Positions 2,496 to 37,563 of a stretch of 46,145 nt of DNA are shown here, in pieces. Origin of the DNA: a virus. Location of the stretch: UHGV virus genome UHGV-0144499; one strand, 5' to 3'. The position numbers and the translations under genes were made by a program. The notes beneath the pieces were generated by a model. The model ran no database searches. It had not been told where the DNA came from and worked only from the letters and a program-made list of their open reading frames with translations. Positions within the stretch are counted from its first letter, which is position 1, and every line of letters begins with the position of its first letter.

Positions 2496-3584
2496 ATGGA
2501 AAAGATTATCTTTACGAAAGGCTTAATCACCAATTCGCAGGTGGTTAAAGAGCAATGGCGTCACCTGACTGTTGACCGCAAGGTTTTCATCAATGGTGAA
2601 AACGCTCTGGCGAAAGAATACGGCGTGAACGCCACCGCGCTGGTAACGAAAGACTACTGGCGCGAAGTGGACGATGTGACCACCCGCGTGTTCCGCAACG
2701 AGTCCGGCATGGACATGATGGCCGACCTGATGACGCTGGCGACCAACATCAACATCGGTAAGACCGTGGCAATTAGCCGCATGGCCTCCGATGCTGGCAA
2801 GGTTGTGCGCACCATCTCCGGGCAGGAGCCTGAAGACCTGGATAAAACCCGCTATTCCTACAGCGGAGATGTAATCCCGATCTTCAAAACCGGTTATGGC
2901 CGCGAGTGGCGCGAGCTGATGGGTATGCAGTCTGAAGGTTTCGACCCGCTGATTGATGACCAGGAAAGCACCACCTTTAACCTGCGCGCAGACATGGCGG
3001 ATTATCTGCTGGTCGGCGATGCAAGCCTGAACGTGAACGGCGTTTATACTGCTTACGGCATCACCAACCACCCGAACACCGTGCAGCTCAACCTGGGTGC
3101 CTCCGGTACTGGCGCGCTGAACATCGACCTGCAAACTGCAACCCCTGATGAAATCGTTGAGTTCTTCAACCAGGGTTTCCAGGCGGTTCTGGACGCGCAG
3201 AACGTGTTCGAGCCGGTTACTCTGTGGGTTTCTCCGTCTGTGCGCCGCTCCTTCAGCCGCCCGTACTCCAACGCGGCAGGCTTCAAAGGCGGCACCATTG
3301 AGGATTATATCCTAGCATTCGGCAAAACCGGCAACGTTGGCCGCATCGCGTCTATCGGCACCAACTTCAAGCTGACCGGGAACCATTTCGTCGGCTACGT
3401 GAAGAATGCTCTGTATATCCGCCCTCGCGTCGCTCAGCCGGTATCCACCTATGCAGAGCCGCGTACCACGCCGCACGCTAACTTTAACTTCCTGACCTGG
3501 GCTGCTATGGGCCTGCAAATCCGTAAGGATTTCAATGGTCGAAGCAAAGTTTTCAACGGCTACGGCACGCAAACCGCGCTGTAA
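2496..3584 (+). CDS. major capsid protein (362 aa)
   Basis: Strong RBS AAGGAG 6 nt upstream; size, position after scaffold/decoration genes and strong terminator immediately downstream typical of MCP. Confidence 0.65.
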   Translation: MEKIIFTKGLITNSQVVKEQWRHLTVDRKVFINGENALAKEYGVNATALVTKDYWREVDDVTTRVFRNESGMDMMADLMTLATNINIGKTVAISRMASDAGKVVRTISGQEPEDLDKTRYSYSGDVIPIFKTGYGREWRELMGMQSEGFDPLIDDQESTTFNLRADMADYLLVGDASLNVNGVYTAYGITNHPNTVQLNLGASGTGALNIDLQTATPDEIVEFFNQGFQAVLDAQNVFEPVTLWVSPSVRRSFSRPYSNAAGFKGGTIEDYILAFGKTGNVGRIASIGTNFKLTGNHFVGYVKNALYIRPRVAQPVSTYAEPRTTPHANFNFLTWAAMGLQIRKDFNGRSKVFNGYGTQTAL

Positions 3585-3625: not shown

Positions 3626-4003
3626 ATGATGACCAGTAAAGGCATTGAGCAAGAAATTAAAGATAAAGGATTGACTGCTCCACGCGTTACTCTGGAGCAT
3701 ATTCATTCGATTATTGTTGGTGAGTATTACTTTACTGCATCAGATGGCGTGCAGCAGGCTTTCCACGAGCAGGATGAATTGACTCGGATGTGTGGGGCTC
3801 ATGATGAGTTGAAATTTCTTACCTTTTGCGTCTTGGTACTGAAAAACGGCTTCACCGTGACAGGAGAAAGCGCCTGCGCCAGTCCAGCTAATTTCAATGC
3901 CGAGATTGGTCGCAAGATTGCCAGAGAGAATGCGGTAAATAAAATATGGATGCTTGAGGGGTACCTCCTTAAGCAGAACCTTTCGGAGGTAAAAAATGGC
4001 TAA
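3626..4003 (+). CDS. hypothetical protein (125 aa)
   Basis: ORF with RBS, in head module. Confidence 0.5.
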   Translation: MMTSKGIEQEIKDKGLTAPRVTLEHIHSIIVGEYYFTASDGVQQAFHEQDELTRMCGAHDELKFLTFCVLVLKNGFTVTGESACASPANFNAEIGRKIARENAVNKIWMLEGYLLKQNLSEVKNG

Positions 4004-7426: not shown

Positions 7427-7484
7427 TTTCTACGTCATCACTATAGCGACACCCTCAATCTACGTCAACACTTTATGATAAAAT
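7427..7484. promoter_or_regulatory. divergent promoter/operator region: tandem TCTACGTCA repeats; minus-direction TTGACG-17-CTATAG; plus-direction extended -10 TGATAAAAT
   Basis: Two copies of (T/A)TCTACGTCA(T/A)CAC 22 bp apart (7427-7440, 7455-7468); reverse strand reads TTGACGtagattgagggtgtcgcTATAG; plus strand TGATAAAAT at 7476-7484. Confidence 0.45.
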
Positions 7485-29059: not shown

Positions 29060-29986
29060 ATGAATCTACATCATAGTCAACTGGAAGAAATTATGCGATA
29101 CGACTGGAAGGATATAGAGCCTTTAATGGTAGGTAACTGGGAGGCTGCTCTACTCTCAATAGTGAATATTGACAGGAATGTTTTTAATGGAAAGCATCAG
29201 CCATGCCCTCATTGCATGGGTAAGGACAGGTTTAGGTGGGATAACAACTTCGAAACAAAAGGTGACGGCGGCGCCATCTGCAACCAGTGCGGAAACGGCA
29301 GCGGAATCACCTGGCTAATGAAGCTGTCAGGAATGACGTTTCCTGAGTCAATGGAAGCACTGGCCGGATTTCTTAACATGCATCCAAGAGAAAAACTTGA
29401 GGCGATTAGAAAGCAACTTCCGAAGGTCAACCATGCTTCTGACTACCTGACAGAGGCAGAAGTGGCGGCCATAATGGAAAAAGCAGGAGGCGACACCATA
29501 ACCGGCAAAACTGGTGAACTGGTGGCGATACCACTCTATATGGCTGGAACTATGACGCCATGCAATGTGGCTTTTATGGCTGATGATGAAACCGTTTCAT
29601 TTCGAGCGGGGTTCAGCCATGAATACACTCGCGGAAGGCTAACGCGCGGCGCAGTGACACCCATCGGCGATAAGACGGAGTGGACATACCTTGTGTCCAA
29701 TTACTTTGACGCATGGCGAGCGCATCGGCTTACCGGCGCCCATGTCTGGTGCTGCTGGTCTCCTGAAAACATGTGGGAAGTTGTGCGCAATGTGAGCGAT
29801 GAGCAGCGAGCCAAACTACGCTGTATCATTAATAATAATTTCGATGAGGTATGCGCAGCCGAGAATGCAGATATTCCGATACTGATTACTGATGATGGTC
29901 ATGATATTCGTTACAGCGGCGCCATCAGAAAAAGACTATATAAACCAGAAGAGCTATTTGAAGCACTAAAAAATAAACCCTCCTGA
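29060..29986 (+). CDS. DNA primase-like protein with DnaG-type CHC2 zinc-binding domain (308 aa)
   Basis: QPCPHCMGKDRFRWDN...GAICNQCGNGSGITWLMKLSGMTF matches the DnaG zinc-binding signature; lone + strand gene inside the minus-strand replication block. Confidence 0.55.
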   Translation: MNLHHSQLEEIMRYDWKDIEPLMVGNWEAALLSIVNIDRNVFNGKHQPCPHCMGKDRFRWDNNFETKGDGGAICNQCGNGSGITWLMKLSGMTFPESMEALAGFLNMHPREKLEAIRKQLPKVNHASDYLTEAEVAAIMEKAGGDTITGKTGELVAIPLYMAGTMTPCNVAFMADDETVSFRAGFSHEYTRGRLTRGAVTPIGDKTEWTYLVSNYFDAWRAHRLTGAHVWCCWSPENMWEVVRNVSDEQRAKLRCIINNNFDEVCAAENADIPILITDDGHDIRYSGAIRKRLYKPEELFEALKNKPS

Positions 29987-30000
29987 TGGAGGGTTTTTGT
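29975..30000. terminator. bidirectional rho-independent terminator
   Basis: aaaccctcc-tgat-ggagggttt then TTTGT; the primase stop codon lies in the loop. Confidence 0.5.
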
Positions 30001-30356
30001 TACTCAAGATTGTACTTTTTGACGGCAGCATCAATAGCCTTGCAGCAGTGCCTTATTGCTCTCATTTTTGTGTTTGATTTGCCACACGCATGTATCTGGT
30101 GAGCACCGTCATGGAGATAAATTAAATCAGTAGCGATGGCTCTCCAGTCATTATCGTGAGACGTAACTCCACGCCTAAAGCAAAGAAAATAATGACCATT
30201 AAAGCATTCCTGAGTAAGATCCATTACCTCAGAATGAAATACGGACGCATCAAATAAACACTGGTCTGCCGCGCCTTGCAACCCGAACCACATGCCATCA
30301 TGAGTGCCTGACATGGCGTAATAAACTGCGGCAGTAACGCGAGTATTAACTTTCAT
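30000..30356 (-). CDS. hypothetical protein (118 aa)
   Basis: ORF ATGA-coupled with upstream replication gene. Confidence 0.45.
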   Translation of the reverse strand: MKVNTRVTAAVYYAMSGTHDGMWFGLQGAADQCLFDASVFHSEVMDLTQECFNGHYFLCFRRGVTSHDNDWRAIATDLIYLHDGAHQIHACGKSNTKMRAIRHCCKAIDAAVKKYNLE

Positions 30357-32008
30357 TTCAGACCTCTCATGAATTTCATCCTGTTAACAGCAGCTGAAAG
30401 TATGTTTCTCACCGAGGCATTCATTCGCAAACCAGACCAGGAACCTTCATCCCTGAATACGATTTTTGACCCGCCATTAATAGCAGAAGCCTCAATGTCG
30501 ATAGGTGAGTGTCTGTTTTCTGTAATGGAAACCAGAACCTCAGAAATGAACCTGTCAGGCGTTACCTGTAAATGATTTGAGTTTGCCGCCTTGATGATTG
30601 TCTCAATTCGACCACGGCACAATCCGCTTTTCAGTACGGAAGTGTAAGGCTTATTAATGAATTTTTTCCCGGCCATCACCTTTCTCATTTTGGCAATGAT
30701 GTTTTCCCACTCATCCTCTTCAAGGCCACTGAATGCAACGTCACCTTCTATATAATCACGAAGCGAGCGAAGGTGATTTATCACTGTCATATAAGCCCAT
30801 TCAAGATGCCTGTCGCACAAAATTGGCGTCATTCCATTGCGACTCGAAAGGTCTGCAAATGCGCATATCGAGGCAAGGTCTACGATCATCTGCCCGGCGC
30901 GCGGGACAACATCGCCAATTACACCATCTACATTTCCGAGACATTTCTCAAGGTGGCACGTAAGCTCATAACGCCTGTCGTTTACCTTTTCACTTTCAAA
31001 TTCAACGCGGGTTATTGAGCGGAGGATTCTTTGCTTCCATTCATTTACTATTCTCCTGTTTACCTCACCTGCTGGCTGCTCTCTTTTTAGTAATGGCATT
31101 TCCTCGTCATCGCCATGACCAAGGATGAACAACGTCCTGCCCATGCCACCATCCTTCTGCCATGACCTTACCGCATCAATACCCTGAACTGGCGTTACAG
31201 TGATGAGCGGAATAAATCTTGCGTTCTCAATACCTCCATCTCGCGTGCATAATTCATGCTCTGCCATCACTTTTTTCAGGTTCCTGCCGACACTGTGATC
31301 CATCTGAGACAATCTTTTATAGTCAATCATCCCATCCTGCGCACCGCCAATACGCGGAACAATCCAGCCTTCCGCCATAGCAACACTAACTATCGTCTTG
31401 GGGTTCATGGCTTTAGCCATATTCTCCTCAATATCCCTGATTATTGTCCTGGTTGGAACCCACCCACCTTCATCAGTCAAACTGCGATACCACGGCGCAG
31501 TTCCGCCAAGATATGCGCTTCTCGGGTCATTCCATGAGTCAATATGCTGCTTGTCATCGTTTACGACGTAAAGCAGAGAGCCATCACCTTCAATCATGCT
31601 GGTCTGTATCTGCTTTAATGATGTAGCAGTAGTGGTGCAAAGGCGGTCGCTTATCATCAGGGCTTCGGCATATTGCTTTATAAAATTAACTGGCGCCTGC
31701 TTGCCAGCTCCAGACCTCGCCACGAGGAAAATCCCAGTAGAGCACTTACTCCCAGTGGGGCCAATAATAAATCTACCAGCCATTATCTGAGCAAGTCCAA
31801 GCGCGCCAACAAGTCGATATTTTTCGCCATCATCACGGCGCTCGAAATTTTTCTCTATCTCATCGATGAACTCCCCAAGTGAACCGGGTGGGATCTTGTA
31901 TTTCTCTCTGAACTCAGGAATGTCAGCCTCATCGAGCGGGTCTATTGATGAATCCGCTTTCCCGACGGATTTTTTCATGGCGATAATTTCGTATGTATTC
32001 ATCAGCAA
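30353..32008 (-). CDS. putative DNA replication protein (551 aa; P-loop-like GPTGSKCS / ARSGAGKQ)
   Basis: Largest gene of the replication block, first gene downstream of the iteron region; function inferred mainly from context. Confidence 0.35.
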   Translation of the reverse strand: MLMNTYEIIAMKKSVGKADSSIDPLDEADIPEFREKYKIPPGSLGEFIDEIEKNFERRDDGEKYRLVGALGLAQIMAGRFIIGPTGSKCSTGIFLVARSGAGKQAPVNFIKQYAEALMISDRLCTTTATSLKQIQTSMIEGDGSLLYVVNDDKQHIDSWNDPRSAYLGGTAPWYRSLTDEGGWVPTRTIIRDIEENMAKAMNPKTIVSVAMAEGWIVPRIGGAQDGMIDYKRLSQMDHSVGRNLKKVMAEHELCTRDGGIENARFIPLITVTPVQGIDAVRSWQKDGGMGRTLFILGHGDDEEMPLLKREQPAGEVNRRIVNEWKQRILRSITRVEFESEKVNDRRYELTCHLEKCLGNVDGVIGDVVPRAGQMIVDLASICAFADLSSRNGMTPILCDRHLEWAYMTVINHLRSLRDYIEGDVAFSGLEEDEWENIIAKMRKVMAGKKFINKPYTSVLKSGLCRGRIETIIKAANSNHLQVTPDRFISEVLVSITENRHSPIDIEASAINGGSKIVFRDEGSWSGLRMNASVRNILSAAVNRMKFMRGLK

Positions 32009-32283
32009 ACCTTCCAGATGTACAGGAATTTACCCATCGGGCCATTTTTGGTCTTAATGTTCATGTTATGCGCAATGGCAATCTTTGCAGCATAGGAGCG
32101 GAACATGTTTCTGTTCATCCGGTACTGTGGGGGGATATCAGATAATCTGCACTCCTCTTTGTAACCCCTGACTACTGAATCTGATAAATCATTTTCGAAA
32201 TGGACGGATATCACCTCCCCGCTCTTCATGGCGGCAAGGTGGTCATAAACGAACTTCATCTTTGAGCCTTCTGCGTGCATCAC
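32002..32283 (-). CDS. hypothetical protein (93 aa)
   Basis: First ORF of the leftward early operon, RBS GGAGGAAG. Confidence 0.45.
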   Translation of the reverse strand: MMHAEGSKMKFVYDHLAAMKSGEVISVHFENDLSDSVVRGYKEECRLSDIPPQYRMNRNMFRSYAAKIAIAHNMNIKTKNGPMGKFLYIWKVC

Positions 32284-32397
32284 TTCCTCCTTCTTGCGTT
32301 ATACAAATTGTACTGAACAATATGCACTCGCGCAAACACTTTAATCGACATAAACCACCGGCATCGACGCAGTATGTATAATGGTCAATTTTTAACC

Positions 32398-32664
32398 AGT
32401 TCCCAAGAGTTCCCGCGCATTTGGGAACTCGCAGACCGCGCGTGGCAAGGCTTGCAGAGGAGTTCCCGAGTTCCCTGGGAATTCCTCTAGTAAAAAAGTA
32501 ATATATACCTTTAATAGATGTTGTTGTTTTTATTAGTGAAAATAGAATTTCTAATTTTTGGGAAAATTCATTTCTAAGGAAAAAGCTGGGAACTCGGGAA
32601 CTCTTTGATTTATAACAATAAATCGCGGGAACTCGCCCGGGAACGGCTGGGAATTACGGGAACA
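32398..32664. repeat. iteron array (about 12 copies of GGGAAC/GTTCCC) flanking a ~100-bp AT-rich core: candidate replication origin / operator cluster
   Basis: Left cluster 32399-32483 (GTTCCC x4, GGGAAC, GGGAAT); AT-rich 32490-32585 (>80% AT); right cluster 32588-32663 (GGGAAC x5, GGGAAT); at the divergence point of leftward replication genes and rightward genes. Confidence 0.55.
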
Positions 32665-32705
32665 CTGAATGAATGTACAGTATTATATTTATTTTCACCA
32701 TCATA

Positions 32706-32734
32706 TTGACGTAGATTGAGCGCCATCGTATAGT
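32706..32734 (+). promoter_or_regulatory. sigma70-type promoter TTGACG-17-TATAGT (rightward) containing the recurring motif in inverted orientation
   Basis: TTGACGTAGATTGA at 32706-32719 (reverse complement of TCAATCTACGTCAA), TATAGT at 32729-32734. Confidence 0.6.
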
Positions 32735-32764
32735 TACCACACCAACAACAAAGAGGTGATGAAA

Positions 32765-32875
32765 GATGAGCAAGAAAACACAATTTTCAGTAAGTAACTT
32801 CCATAATGAGCATGTCATGCGCTGGCACTGGCAGAAACTAAAAGAGAAACACCTTGCATCAAAGGGTAAATAAAC
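32765..32875 (+). CDS. small ORF (36 aa)
   Basis: RBS AGAGGTGA; MSKKTQFSVSNFHNEHVMRWHWQKLKEKHLASKGK. Confidence 0.3.
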
Positions 32876-33981: not shown

Positions 33982-34073
33982 AGCCATACATCATCCACAG
34001 ACTGATTGCCGTATCAACTCTGGCATTCTGGATTTTTGTTGCGTTAGCCATCTGGTTTATCTTGAGGTGATTT

Positions 34074-34944: not shown

Positions 34945-35043
34945 CTGATTTATAATAATTAATGCGGCTAGGGGGCACCCGAAAAGCGACTCATCACCGC
35001 CTGCTGCATTCACTTCAATGATGCCCTGATGAGGAATCTATAT

Positions 35044-37563
35044 ATGGCACGCAAAAGACTGTCAGCACCAGCAATTGAAAAACTTGAAGAGATTATTGGC
35101 GATGGCGTGATTGATGCGCCTGAATCTGCGGTGTTCGGTGTTGTTAATACAGATAAGCAGATTGTTCGCAAACTCAAAATGACGCAAAGCGGAGTTGATG
35201 ACGTTAGCGACTCTGATATTGGCGTTGATCACCTGATACCAGAAAAGCTGGAAAAGCTACTTTACCCCAAGAGAAATAAGATTGTGTTTGGCGGGCGCGG
35301 ATGCTTAGCCATCGGCACGATGGTGAGGATGTTTGATGGTGGCCTAAAACGCGTAGAGGATATCGTTGTTGGCGATAAGGTTATGGGTCCAGACAGTAAG
35401 TCACGAAATGTTTTAAGCATCTGTCGTGGGTTTGATGACATGTACACGGTTCATCAAAAATATGCCGATAACTACACCGTCAACTCAAGTCACATACTGT
35501 CATTACGAAAGATTCCATCTGCTATCAGTGACGAGACAAAAACACCGGATGGTAAAAGAATTTATCGTTATTACCCAAATGAACCTGAAGTACTGAACAT
35601 CGGTGTTTCAGAATATTTATCGCGCGCAACTTCTAAAAAGTTCCGCCATGTCTTTAAAGGGTGGCGAACAGGGTGGGATTTTAATGAGCAGAGCGTTCCA
35701 GTTGACCCGTACTTCCTTGGTTTATGGTTAGGTGATGGCTCATCTCGTAGTGTTGAAGTATGCACGCCTGATCAAGAGATAGTTGACTACCTTCACAGCA
35801 TAGCAAACCAATACGGGATGCAATTAAAGGCTCGGGATAAAGACAGATGTCCTGTCTATGCGATAACTAATGGCCGAACTGCTGGCATGGGGGAAAACAC
35901 CAACCCGTTACTAACTAAAATGCAGCAGCTTGGGGTGATTAATAATAAACACATACCTGACTGCTATATCAAAAACAGCAGAGAGGTAAGACTTCAGATT
36001 CTGGCTGGGCTATTGGATACTGATTCGCATTACCACAAAGAAAAGAAAAGCTATTGTTTTACATCAATAAATAAAGATATAGCCTTCTCTTTGATGGATG
36101 TAGCAAGATCGCTTGGTTTCAAGTCAAGCATAATCAAAAAGACTGATGTCACCTTTGAGTATAAAGGCGAGAAAAGAATATACGAAAAGGATGTGTGGGA
36201 GGTGTTCGTTAGTGGTGACCTTCATACAATCCCATGCCGAGTAAAAAGGAAGATAGCAGAGAGAACCAAGTCAACTCGCGGGATGATGACTGAGGTGTCA
36301 TTGTCTTATGCCGGGCATGGTGAATACGCTGGGTTCACTCTTGATGGCGATCATCTTTTCTTGCTTGCTGACGGCACAGTTACACACAACAGCGGAAAAA
36401 CAAGAACAGTAACTACAATACTTACGGAGCGTGCACGTTTCAAACCTGACAGGATGGCTTGTTTTCGTGAGATTCAGCAGTCTATTGAGGATAGTTCATA
36501 TCAGGAACTGAAAGACGAGATTGACAGGAAGGGCGAGACAAAAGAGTTCCGCGTCATCAACAACGAAATAACGCACAAGGTAACGAAAGCAAAGTTCCGC
36601 TTTAAAGGGCTGTATCGCAACCAGACGACCGTAAAAGGCTTCGCTGGCATTACAGTAGCTTGGGTCGAGGAGGCGGAAAACGTCAGCCAGACAAGCTGGG
36701 AAATCCTCACCCCAACAGTCCGCGCTGAAGGGTCAGAGATATGGGTGACTTTCAACCCAAATAAAGAGCATGACCCGACGTGGAAAATATGGGTTGAGCC
36801 TTTTTATAATAAATTGCGCGAAAATGGCGGCATCTATGAGGATGATGAAAACCTGATTATCGAGTGTAATTACTCAGACAATCCGTGGTTCTGGGATACT
36901 CCGCTCCCAAGCCAAATGCAGCGCATGAAAGAAACCGACTTCGACCGCTATCAATGGGTGTGGGGTGGGCGCTTTAATAAGCGTAATGATGAGCAGGTAT
37001 TTGGCGGTAAGTGGCGCGTTGCTGATTTCGAGGTTAAGCCGGAATGGCATGGGCCTTACTTTGGCATCGACTTTGGATTCTCGCAGGACGCAACGGCGAT
37101 GGTTGAGGTTTACATTGAGAAACTTCCTGATGACCGCCGCAACCTTTACGTCGCGCGCGAATACGGCCGTGTAGGCCTTGAGATTACCGACACACCTACA
37201 GCGATGGAGCAATCATTCCCACTCTCCAGGAAGGCAAGATGGTATGGGGACTGCTCTCGGCCAGAAACAATCAGTCACATCAAACGCGCAGGATTTGATA
37301 TCCATCCATGCAATAAGTGGCCCGGGAGCGTGGAGGAGGGTGTAACCTGGCTCAGGGGTTGCGACAGCATCATCATTCATGACCGCTGCACACAGACTCA
37401 GGAAGAGTTCACTATGTACAGTTACAAGGTGGACAAGCTGACGGGTAACGTGCTCACAAATATTGTGGATGCGTGGAACCACTTCATTGACGCAATCAGA
37501 TATGCATGCAACGATCACATCGTACAGCGTGGCTCTGGATGGATTAGAAGGGGCAGGAGATGA
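35044..37563 (+). CDS. terminase large subunit, interrupted in-frame by an intein (extein about 476 aa)
   Basis: Walker A split as VFGGRG | intein | SGKTRTVT; Walker B ITVAWVEEAEN; C-terminal nuclease-type region; start at ATG with GAGGA RBS (MARKRLS). Confidence 0.85.
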   Translation: MARKRLSAPAIEKLEEIIGDGVIDAPESAVFGVVNTDKQIVRKLKMTQSGVDDVSDSDIGVDHLIPEKLEKLLYPKRNKIVFGGRGCLAIGTMVRMFDGGLKRVEDIVVGDKVMGPDSKSRNVLSICRGFDDMYTVHQKYADNYTVNSSHILSLRKIPSAISDETKTPDGKRIYRYYPNEPEVLNIGVSEYLSRATSKKFRHVFKGWRTGWDFNEQSVPVDPYFLGLWLGDGSSRSVEVCTPDQEIVDYLHSIANQYGMQLKARDKDRCPVYAITNGRTAGMGENTNPLLTKMQQLGVINNKHIPDCYIKNSREVRLQILAGLLDTDSHYHKEKKSYCFTSINKDIAFSLMDVARSLGFKSSIIKKTDVTFEYKGEKRIYEKDVWEVFVSGDLHTIPCRVKRKIAERTKSTRGMMTEVSLSYAGHGEYAGFTLDGDHLFLLADGTVTHNSGKTRTVTTILTERARFKPDRMACFREIQQSIEDSSYQELKDEIDRKGETKEFRVINNEITHKVTKAKFRFKGLYRNQTTVKGFAGITVAWVEEAENVSQTSWEILTPTVRAEGSEIWVTFNPNKEHDPTWKIWVEPFYNKLRENGGIYEDDENLIIECNYSDNPWFWDTPLPSQMQRMKETDFDRYQWVWGGRFNKRNDEQVFGGKWRVADFEVKPEWHGPYFGIDFGFSQDATAMVEVYIEKLPDDRRNLYVAREYGRVGLEITDTPTAMEQSFPLSRKARWYGDCSRPETISHIKRAGFDIHPCNKWPGSVEEGVTWLRGCDSIIIHDRCTQTQEEFTMYSYKVDKLTGNVLTNIVDAWNHFIDAIRYACNDHIVQRGSGWIRRGRR
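35302..36390 (+). mobile_element. intein with LAGLIDADG homing-endonuclease domain (363 aa) in the terminase P-loop
   Basis: Begins CLAIGT (block A), TVNSSH (block B), LGLWLGDGS and LAGLLDTDSHY (LAGLIDADG blocks), ends ...VTHN followed by extein Ser (block G); insertion precisely between GRG and SGKT of Walker A. Confidence 0.8.

Follow-up and report, generated by a model that had tools for sequence, protein, structure and literature searches.

The virus genome UHGV-0144499, analysed here over its full 46,145 nt (hereafter the window), contains at positions 32399-32663 an intergenic array of short repeats on either side of an AT-rich core. From sequence comparison, we predict that this array is a phage replication origin served by a self-loading, sequence-specific helicase, a reading to which we assign a probability of about two in three. 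A first-pass annotation made from the letters of the window had proposed an iteron-type origin with an unwinding element at this position, and the proposal is supported by the architecture of the array, by core conservation and by repeats that are matched to the helicase. Support for an origin comes from the fact that every testable sequence-level prediction of an iteron-type origin came out as expected. The window represents a small siphovirus of Klebsiella, assigned to a Roufvirus/Skatevirus-like cluster, whose nearest relatives are BUCT541 and KpnS_VR6602 (~95% identity over the region).

Anatomy of the repeat array

Over the full window, the hexamer GGGAAC is not in excess: the two strands together carry 16 copies, compared with a mean of 14.9 after shuffling. 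Ten of these 16 fall within 32399-32663, where ~0.03-0.09 copies would be expected in 265 bp (Poisson P about 1e-18 to 1e-22), and the six copies beyond the array are isolated singletons. With two GGGAAT variants (starting at 32477 and 32649), the array comprises 12 units, six per side, which agrees with the earlier count of about 12 copies in two clusters. The left cluster (32399-32482) consists of units at 32399-32404 (-), 32409-32414 (-), 32423-32428 (+), 32462-32467 (-), 32470-32475 (-) and 32477-32482 (+, GGGAAT), while the right cluster (32588-32663) consists of plus strand units starting at 32588, 32596, 32627, 32639, 32649 (GGGAAT) and 32658. Polarity is opposed across the core, with 4/6 left units on the minus strand (GTTCCC) and 6/6 right units on the plus strand, as had been annotated. 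The hexamer proved to be the core of a longer unit: when the 12 units are aligned in one orientation, GGGAAC is followed by T at +1 in 10/12 and by C at +2 in 9/12, and the unit can be written as YGGGAACTC.

Between the two clusters lies the AT-rich core (32485-32584, 79% AT), a candidate DNA-unwinding element. Among all 100 bp segments of the 46 kb, this one has both the highest AT content and the lowest stability (-108.4 kcal/mol versus a mean of -139.3 with a standard deviation of 7.5, or ~4 standard deviations off the mean). The first-pass annotation had given an AT content of >80% for 32490-32585; the AT-rich core is present there, but this figure is slightly too high (79.2% was measured), and the content of 32492-32571 is 81%.

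No open reading frame (ORF) in the window spans the array. In BUCT541, a coding sequence for a 111 aa hypothetical protein (UAW06822.1, L001 6870-7205) is annotated over it, at the equivalent of window positions ~32369-32704. This is likely a false call, because the 95%-identical window has no intact counterpart ORF, and it was not accepted as a real gene. No DnaA box (TTATCCACA, with up to one mismatch) was found in 32284-32767, the closest being at 33991, and the array region contains no match to the IHF consensus. A search of Rfam returned only two matches, both far under the gathering score (21 versus 100 bits), and no known RNA. A sigma-54 promoter was considered at TGGCAAGGCTTGCA and rejected: promoters of this kind have a GG-to-GC spacing of 10 nt, and the spacing here is 8 nt.

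Within the left cluster is a near-palindrome, CAAGGCTTG (32446-32454), which is a unique 9-mer in the window and possibly an auxiliary site. The GGCTTGC / CAAGGCTTG element is found in arrays of differing iteron specificity (9/48 arrays versus ~2.6 expected). It is carried by loci L022/L023/L024 and by ZCKP8 (L002), KpV2811 (L005), Bas77 (L068 ~885) and KLB16 (L067 ~1568 and ~1628).

Conservation of the array and its pairing with a predicted helicase

Selection on the repeats was tested in an alignment of six GGGAACT-type arrays from phages with primases that are 77-95% identical to that of the window. Invariant columns make up 67/72 positions in the repeat cores versus 52/93 in the intra-cluster spacers (Fisher p = 6e-8), and the spacers (for example CGCCC, GGTGC, CGCGC and AGTCC) vary freely between constant repeat cores. 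In the left 37 bp of the AT-rich core, 35/37 positions are invariant, and the CAAGGCTTG element is also kept.

For a wider comparison, 56 IMG/VR loci were retrieved via the conserved primase and anchored on the conserved rightward promoter. Wherever the intergenic region was usable, in 48 IMG/VR relatives as well as several GenBank phages, repeats and an AT-rich core were found at the equivalent slot, and an AT-rich core flanked by repeat clusters is kept in all module types. Leftward of the slot there is always a protein of 495-551 aa, usually then one of 71-127 aa. MK54, ZCKP8 and KpV2811 align to the window only from 32687 rightwards; their upstream part has an equal layout with different repeats (TGGGGAA/TGCCCCA). 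In VLCpiS13c (L064 2097-5500) and XY3 (L006 1-420), the whole replication module is swapped for opposite-strand genes, a Cro-like helix-turn-helix gene and a 772 aa Prim-Pol/PriCT-2/DUF3987 fusion, and the slot holds six AGACTTTAGAA repeats and two poly-C runs. The GenBank record of Salmonella phage Vi II-E1 (AM491472, L065) lists a 25 bp repeat at 3426-3450 and 3657-3681, flanking the AT core of that phage, with no function given.

In the window, the large protein of this slot is a predicted MCM-like AAA+ helicase of 549 aa (30353-32002, minus strand), with a likely ATG start at 32002 and a Walker A motif at S99-K103; a program-made ORF list gives it as 551 aa with a TTG start at 32008. The protein models with a Walker A and B core and a fold nearest MCM. 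It has no Pfam match, and so none to DUF3987 (PF13148) above the gathering threshold, although its MK54 counterpart does match that family (E-value: 2.4e-35). A published prediction casts DUF3987 proteins as replicative helicases of mobile elements (PMC5862659). A PDB sequence-profile search recovered no relatives, and a tblastn search of a plasmid collection with the helicase gave no match.

The large proteins of the compared phages form three families, which were split into subfamilies at ≥80% identity. Family 1 corresponds to Pfam DUF3987. The helicase part of phrog_3022 is matched by both family 2 and family 3, which are mutually related (hhalign E-value: 1.4e-8). The window helicase, a member of family 3, is tied to DUF3987-type proteins only through phrog_3022 and the hhalign match to family 2. 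A direct hhalign comparison of families 3 and 1 was discarded, as the alignment covered nothing beyond the Walker A stretch.

Repeat cores and large-protein subfamilies correspond one-to-one. Subfamily 3.4, that of the window, occurs with GGGAAC, subfamily 3.5 with GGTAAC and subfamily 3.6 with CGGTAAA; subfamilies 1.0, 1.1 and 1.2 occur with GGGG[ACT]A, GGGCGA and GGGCAT, respectively, and subfamily 2.3 with GGATAA. Two more GenBank phages extend this series. Bas77, with a large protein 58% identical, carries the repeat CCGGTAAA, with a CGGTAAA core as in subfamily 3.6, and KLB16 (32% identical) carries [AG]GTAAA, with minus strand copies to the left and plus strand copies to the right of its AT-rich core. 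The family 2 core TGGATAA / TTATCCA (L039, L046, L059, L012 and L035) is identical to the first seven bases of the DnaA box (TTATCCACA), which could be fortuitous or could hint that host DnaA takes part in that lineage.

The small proteins encoded beside the array do not follow the repeats in this way. The GGGG[ACT]A core is found beside large proteins that are 99% identical (100% over the C-terminal 90 aa) and four unrelated small-protein clusters (2, 3, 4 and 6), and the GGATAA core of family 2 is found beside 88%-identical helicases and three such clusters (2, 5 and 7). Because the small proteins change while the large protein and the core stay the same, the large protein is the consistent partner of the repeats. 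These observations bear on an alternative in which the array is an origin but is read by the 92 aa small protein of the window (32002-32280, minus strand), which would bring in the helicase in the way that O of lambda brings in P-DnaB. In favour of this version, its gene directly adjoins the array and shows translational coupling to that of the helicase, an AP2 DNA-binding domain is present in one class of the small proteins at this slot and, in family 3, the small protein diverges in step with the repeat core; set against the exchanges in families 1 and 2, and against some loci (such as L041) where no small ORF is called beside the array, we consider this version unlikely. The slot is occupied by at least seven unrelated small proteins among the phages, examples of the AP2 class being found at L020 8653-8925 (minus strand) and in Salmonella phage Akira (QBZ71405, L066 3055-3327). 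These interchangeable small genes, the AP2-domain protein included, might encode regulators or competitors at the origin.

The first-pass annotation had named either the 551 aa protein or the primase as the initiator. The helicase remains a good candidate, as the core tracks its subfamily, but the primase is not the specificity partner, because it is 86-95% identical among phages with different arrays. From sequence, it is presumed to be the priming partner rather than the specificity determinant. Other genes are similarly decoupled from array type, namely the third gene of the leftward operon, DUF7540, p92, the 138 aa candidate small terminase and the N-terminus of the large terminase (TerL).

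The last two of these are relevant to the idea that the array is a pac site, recognized by the small terminase and lying ahead of the small ORFs that precede the terminase genes. In the SU57 paper, pac of T1-like phages is placed in an untranslated stretch that precedes numerous small ORFs (PMC7718038), the terminase genes of the window lie 2-2.4 kb to the right of the array, and the GenBank records of ZCKP8 and KpV2811 break within the AT-rich core. A pac site is nevertheless highly improbable. The 138 aa proteins of L027, L017, L050, L039 and L042 are 91-99% identical beside different arrays, whereas those of L011, L014 and L029 are only 42-55% identical beside the same array, a comparison limited by the fact that the 138 aa protein is a candidate small terminase by position alone. 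The N-terminus of TerL is likewise decoupled, the breaks in ZCKP8 and KpV2811 are ~40 bp apart and define no single position, and the ends of IMG/VR contigs are scattered. Cohesive ends in the AT core were rejected on account of the same ~40 bp separation and the scattered metagenomic contig ends. The record ends concerned (L002 1 and L004 3991 for ZCKP8, L005 1 for KpV2811) are all inside AT-rich cores, and could reflect either packaging or an assembly that broke off in AT-rich DNA of low complexity.

Several points weigh against an origin served by the helicase. The left/right polarity that is clear in the window is mixed in several other array types. In family 3, the co-divergence of small protein and helicase makes the two candidate binders of the window type inseparable. 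As the helicase gene and the array are linked, they could also recombine together without interacting; the one-to-one pattern over ~8 specificities makes joint exchange of this kind less likely. The literature searched (publications on BUCT541, KlebP_265, the BASEL Skatevirus phages and the T1-like phages TLS and SU57) names no origin for this phage group, and the TLS paper explicitly reports that no iterons were found. Finally, GC skew offers no independent support. Cumulative skew had been suggested as a check, and a minimum is present at 32-33 kb, but it was rejected as evidence because skew follows the coding strand: the mean is +0.048 for plus strand genes and -0.089 for minus strand genes, and the plus strand gene for the primase has positive skew although the leftward block around it is negative.

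Promoters and neighbouring genes

The array is located at a divergence point, as first described, with leftward genes beginning at 32280 and rightward genes at 32768. The rightward sigma-70-type promoter that had been annotated at 32706 (TTGACG-17-TATAGT, 32706-32734, plus strand) was recovered by a promoter scan and is kept in all relatives; its -35 element begins 43 bp past the last repeat. A putative leftward promoter for the small-protein/helicase operon (TTGCGC-17-TACAAT, 32307-32335, minus strand) is under the scanner threshold and was deduced from the sequence; this stretch is nearly invariant in the six GGGAACT-type arrays and lies 64 bp from the first repeat. A rightward extended -10 (TGTATAAT, 32374-32382) was dropped because it is not conserved in the six arrays.

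This position between divergent promoters is what would be expected if the array were only a transcriptional control region for two early promoters, bound by a module-encoded protein and without a role in replication. Iteron-binding initiators commonly autoregulate their own genes, so a regulatory effect is plausible even at an origin. As a complete explanation, transcriptional control is quite unlikely in our view. The repeats are clear of both core promoters, by the distances given above, and twelve sites over 265 bp around the least stable 100 bp are not an operator layout. In addition, the AT-rich core between two clusters is retained in every module type, the rightward promoter and genes are constant whichever repeats stand upstream, and the protein that consistently accompanies the repeats is predicted to be an MCM-like helicase rather than a transcription factor.

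A GA(C/T)GTAGATT(G) box at 32706-32718 (plus strand) overlaps the -35 element of the rightward promoter and is kept in all relatives. The box recurs at ~8 intergenic promoter-like sites genome-wide, with copies also at 7468 (-), 11542 (-), 26023/26033 (-), 37911/37928 (-), 42438 (-) and 44583 (-)/44598 (+), and it may serve as a promoter or regulator motif throughout the phage.

The leftward operon begins with the gene for the 92 aa small protein, possibly an accessory or DNA-binding protein, whose TGA stop overlaps the helicase ATG (TGATG). The third gene encodes a 118 aa protein (30000-30356, minus strand) and its start overlaps the helicase stop; this protein matches no family, and its cluster membership is independent of array type. 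Further out to the left is the primase gene (29060-29986, plus strand), the product of which is a DnaG/T7-type primase with a zinc ribbon (matching Pfam Zn_Ribbon_Prim and phrog_510), and a gene for an SF2 helicase also lies on this side. Downstream of the rightward promoter are small ORFs, followed by the genes for the 138 aa protein and an intein-containing large terminase. Searches of Pfam and NCBIfam gave no match for the 551 aa, 92 aa, 118 aa and 138 aa proteins or for the helicase termini.

The large terminase (35029-37563, plus strand, 844 aa) contains an intein in which a Hint domain (residues 92-178) is followed by a LAGLIDADG homing endonuclease (residues 309-375). The intein is inserted ahead of the Terminase_3 domain, and the terminases of BUCT541 and MK54 are 474 aa in length without an intein.

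Proposed mechanism and comparison with known origins

In the mechanism that we propose for the origin, the 549 aa MCM-like helicase would recognize the YGGGAACTC units, probably through a winged-helix-like C-terminal region. Helicase assemblies would form on the two oppositely oriented six-unit clusters and melt the ~100 bp AT-rich core, and the helicase would load itself, acting as its own initiator. Divergent firing of the two flanking promoters would make the DNA between them more negatively supercoiled and easier to open; under the twin-domain model, diverging transcription under-winds the DNA in between. The phage DnaG-type primase would then prime synthesis and a host polymerase would extend the primers. 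Copying by the host polymerase is proposed since a polymerase gene is unreported for the phage group, a publication on a phage of this group reporting none.

Extending this proposal, the Roufvirus/Skatevirus-like small siphoviruses may share a hot-swappable replicon cassette in the slot that separates the replication genes from the conserved rightward promoter, an idea that we offer tentatively, as possible but short of probable. With a similar degree of caution, the cassette can be pictured as at least eight MCM-like helicase subfamilies, each with a private iteron of 6-8 bp, and with near specificities only one base apart (GGGAAC, GGTAAC and GGTAAA). If this were the case, private origins could bar co-infecting relatives or satellites from sharing initiators, a form of replicon incompatibility, and the phages would offer a natural read-out of double-stranded DNA recognition by a bacterial-virus MCM-like helicase.

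This kind of origin is already known, and it is not yet described for this phage group. If confirmed, the finding would show that virulent enterobacterial phages can have a staphylococcal pathogenicity island (SaPI)-style origin with a self-loading helicase, provide an easy annotation rule for locating origins in >100 genomes, and supply matched helicase/iteron pairs for studying origin recognition by MCM-like proteins and for building orthogonal replicons. Some of these pairs come from BASEL collection phages that infect E. coli K-12 (Bas77-81), and the group includes therapeutic-candidate siphoviruses of Klebsiella, E. coli and Salmonella. The general view of how origins work would be unchanged.

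The closest described analogue of the phage array is the SaPI origin. Its 6-12 penta- or hexanucleotide iterons are split equally between the two sides of an AT-rich centre, with opposite orientations across it, and are bound by the winged-helix domain of the self-loading Rep, a member of an AAA+ clade shared with MCM (PMC9371898). Similarly, the phage array has short repeats in two opposed sets around an AT-rich centre (six units per side in the window), is directly beside the gene for a predicted MCM-clade AAA+ helicase, and has a separate or fused primase encoded next door. Helicases and repeats are matched pairwise in both systems, in the phages by comparative evidence from ~8 subfamilies. 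The winged helix of SaPI Rep is C-terminal, and the region proposed here to read the phage repeats would be a winged-helix-like C-terminal one. The two systems differ in that the phage array is upstream (5') of its operon, whereas the SaPI origin is just downstream of rep, and in that the host element is a virulent enterobacterial siphovirus rather than a Gram-positive satellite. The phage helicase is also of a different family, its primase is of the DnaG/T7 type and its binding to the repeats is a prediction.

Resemblance to other well-characterized origins is less complete. Like P4 ori/crr and alpha, the phage system combines short repeats (octamers in P4) with a phage-encoded helicase proposed here to act as its own initiator, with no need for DnaA; in P4, the repeats are read by the C-terminal DNA-binding domain of alpha. 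However, P4 requires two repeat regions (ori and crr), while the window has one, and alpha joins a primase and an SF3 helicase in one protein, while the phage primase and helicase are encoded by separate genes. As in lambda, the repeats adjoin an AT-rich unwinding region and specificity is swapped as a module among relatives, but the lambda iterons are ~19 bp in length and are located inside the O gene, compared with 8-9 bp intergenic units here. Lambda O is not a helicase and recruits host DnaB through P, whereas the partner of the phage repeats is itself a predicted helicase. Iteron plasmids with WH-WH Rep proteins (pPS10, RK2, R6K and F) similarly have repeats beside an AT-rich unwinding element and an adjacent initiator gene, but theirs are direct repeats of 17-22 bp that occupy a single side of the element and are usually accompanied by DnaA boxes, while the phage repeats are short, lie on both sides of the core and have no DnaA box. 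Lambda-type, plasmid-iteron-type, P4-type and DnaA-type origins were set aside because each fails at least one defining feature, and the array most closely resembles that of the SaPIs.
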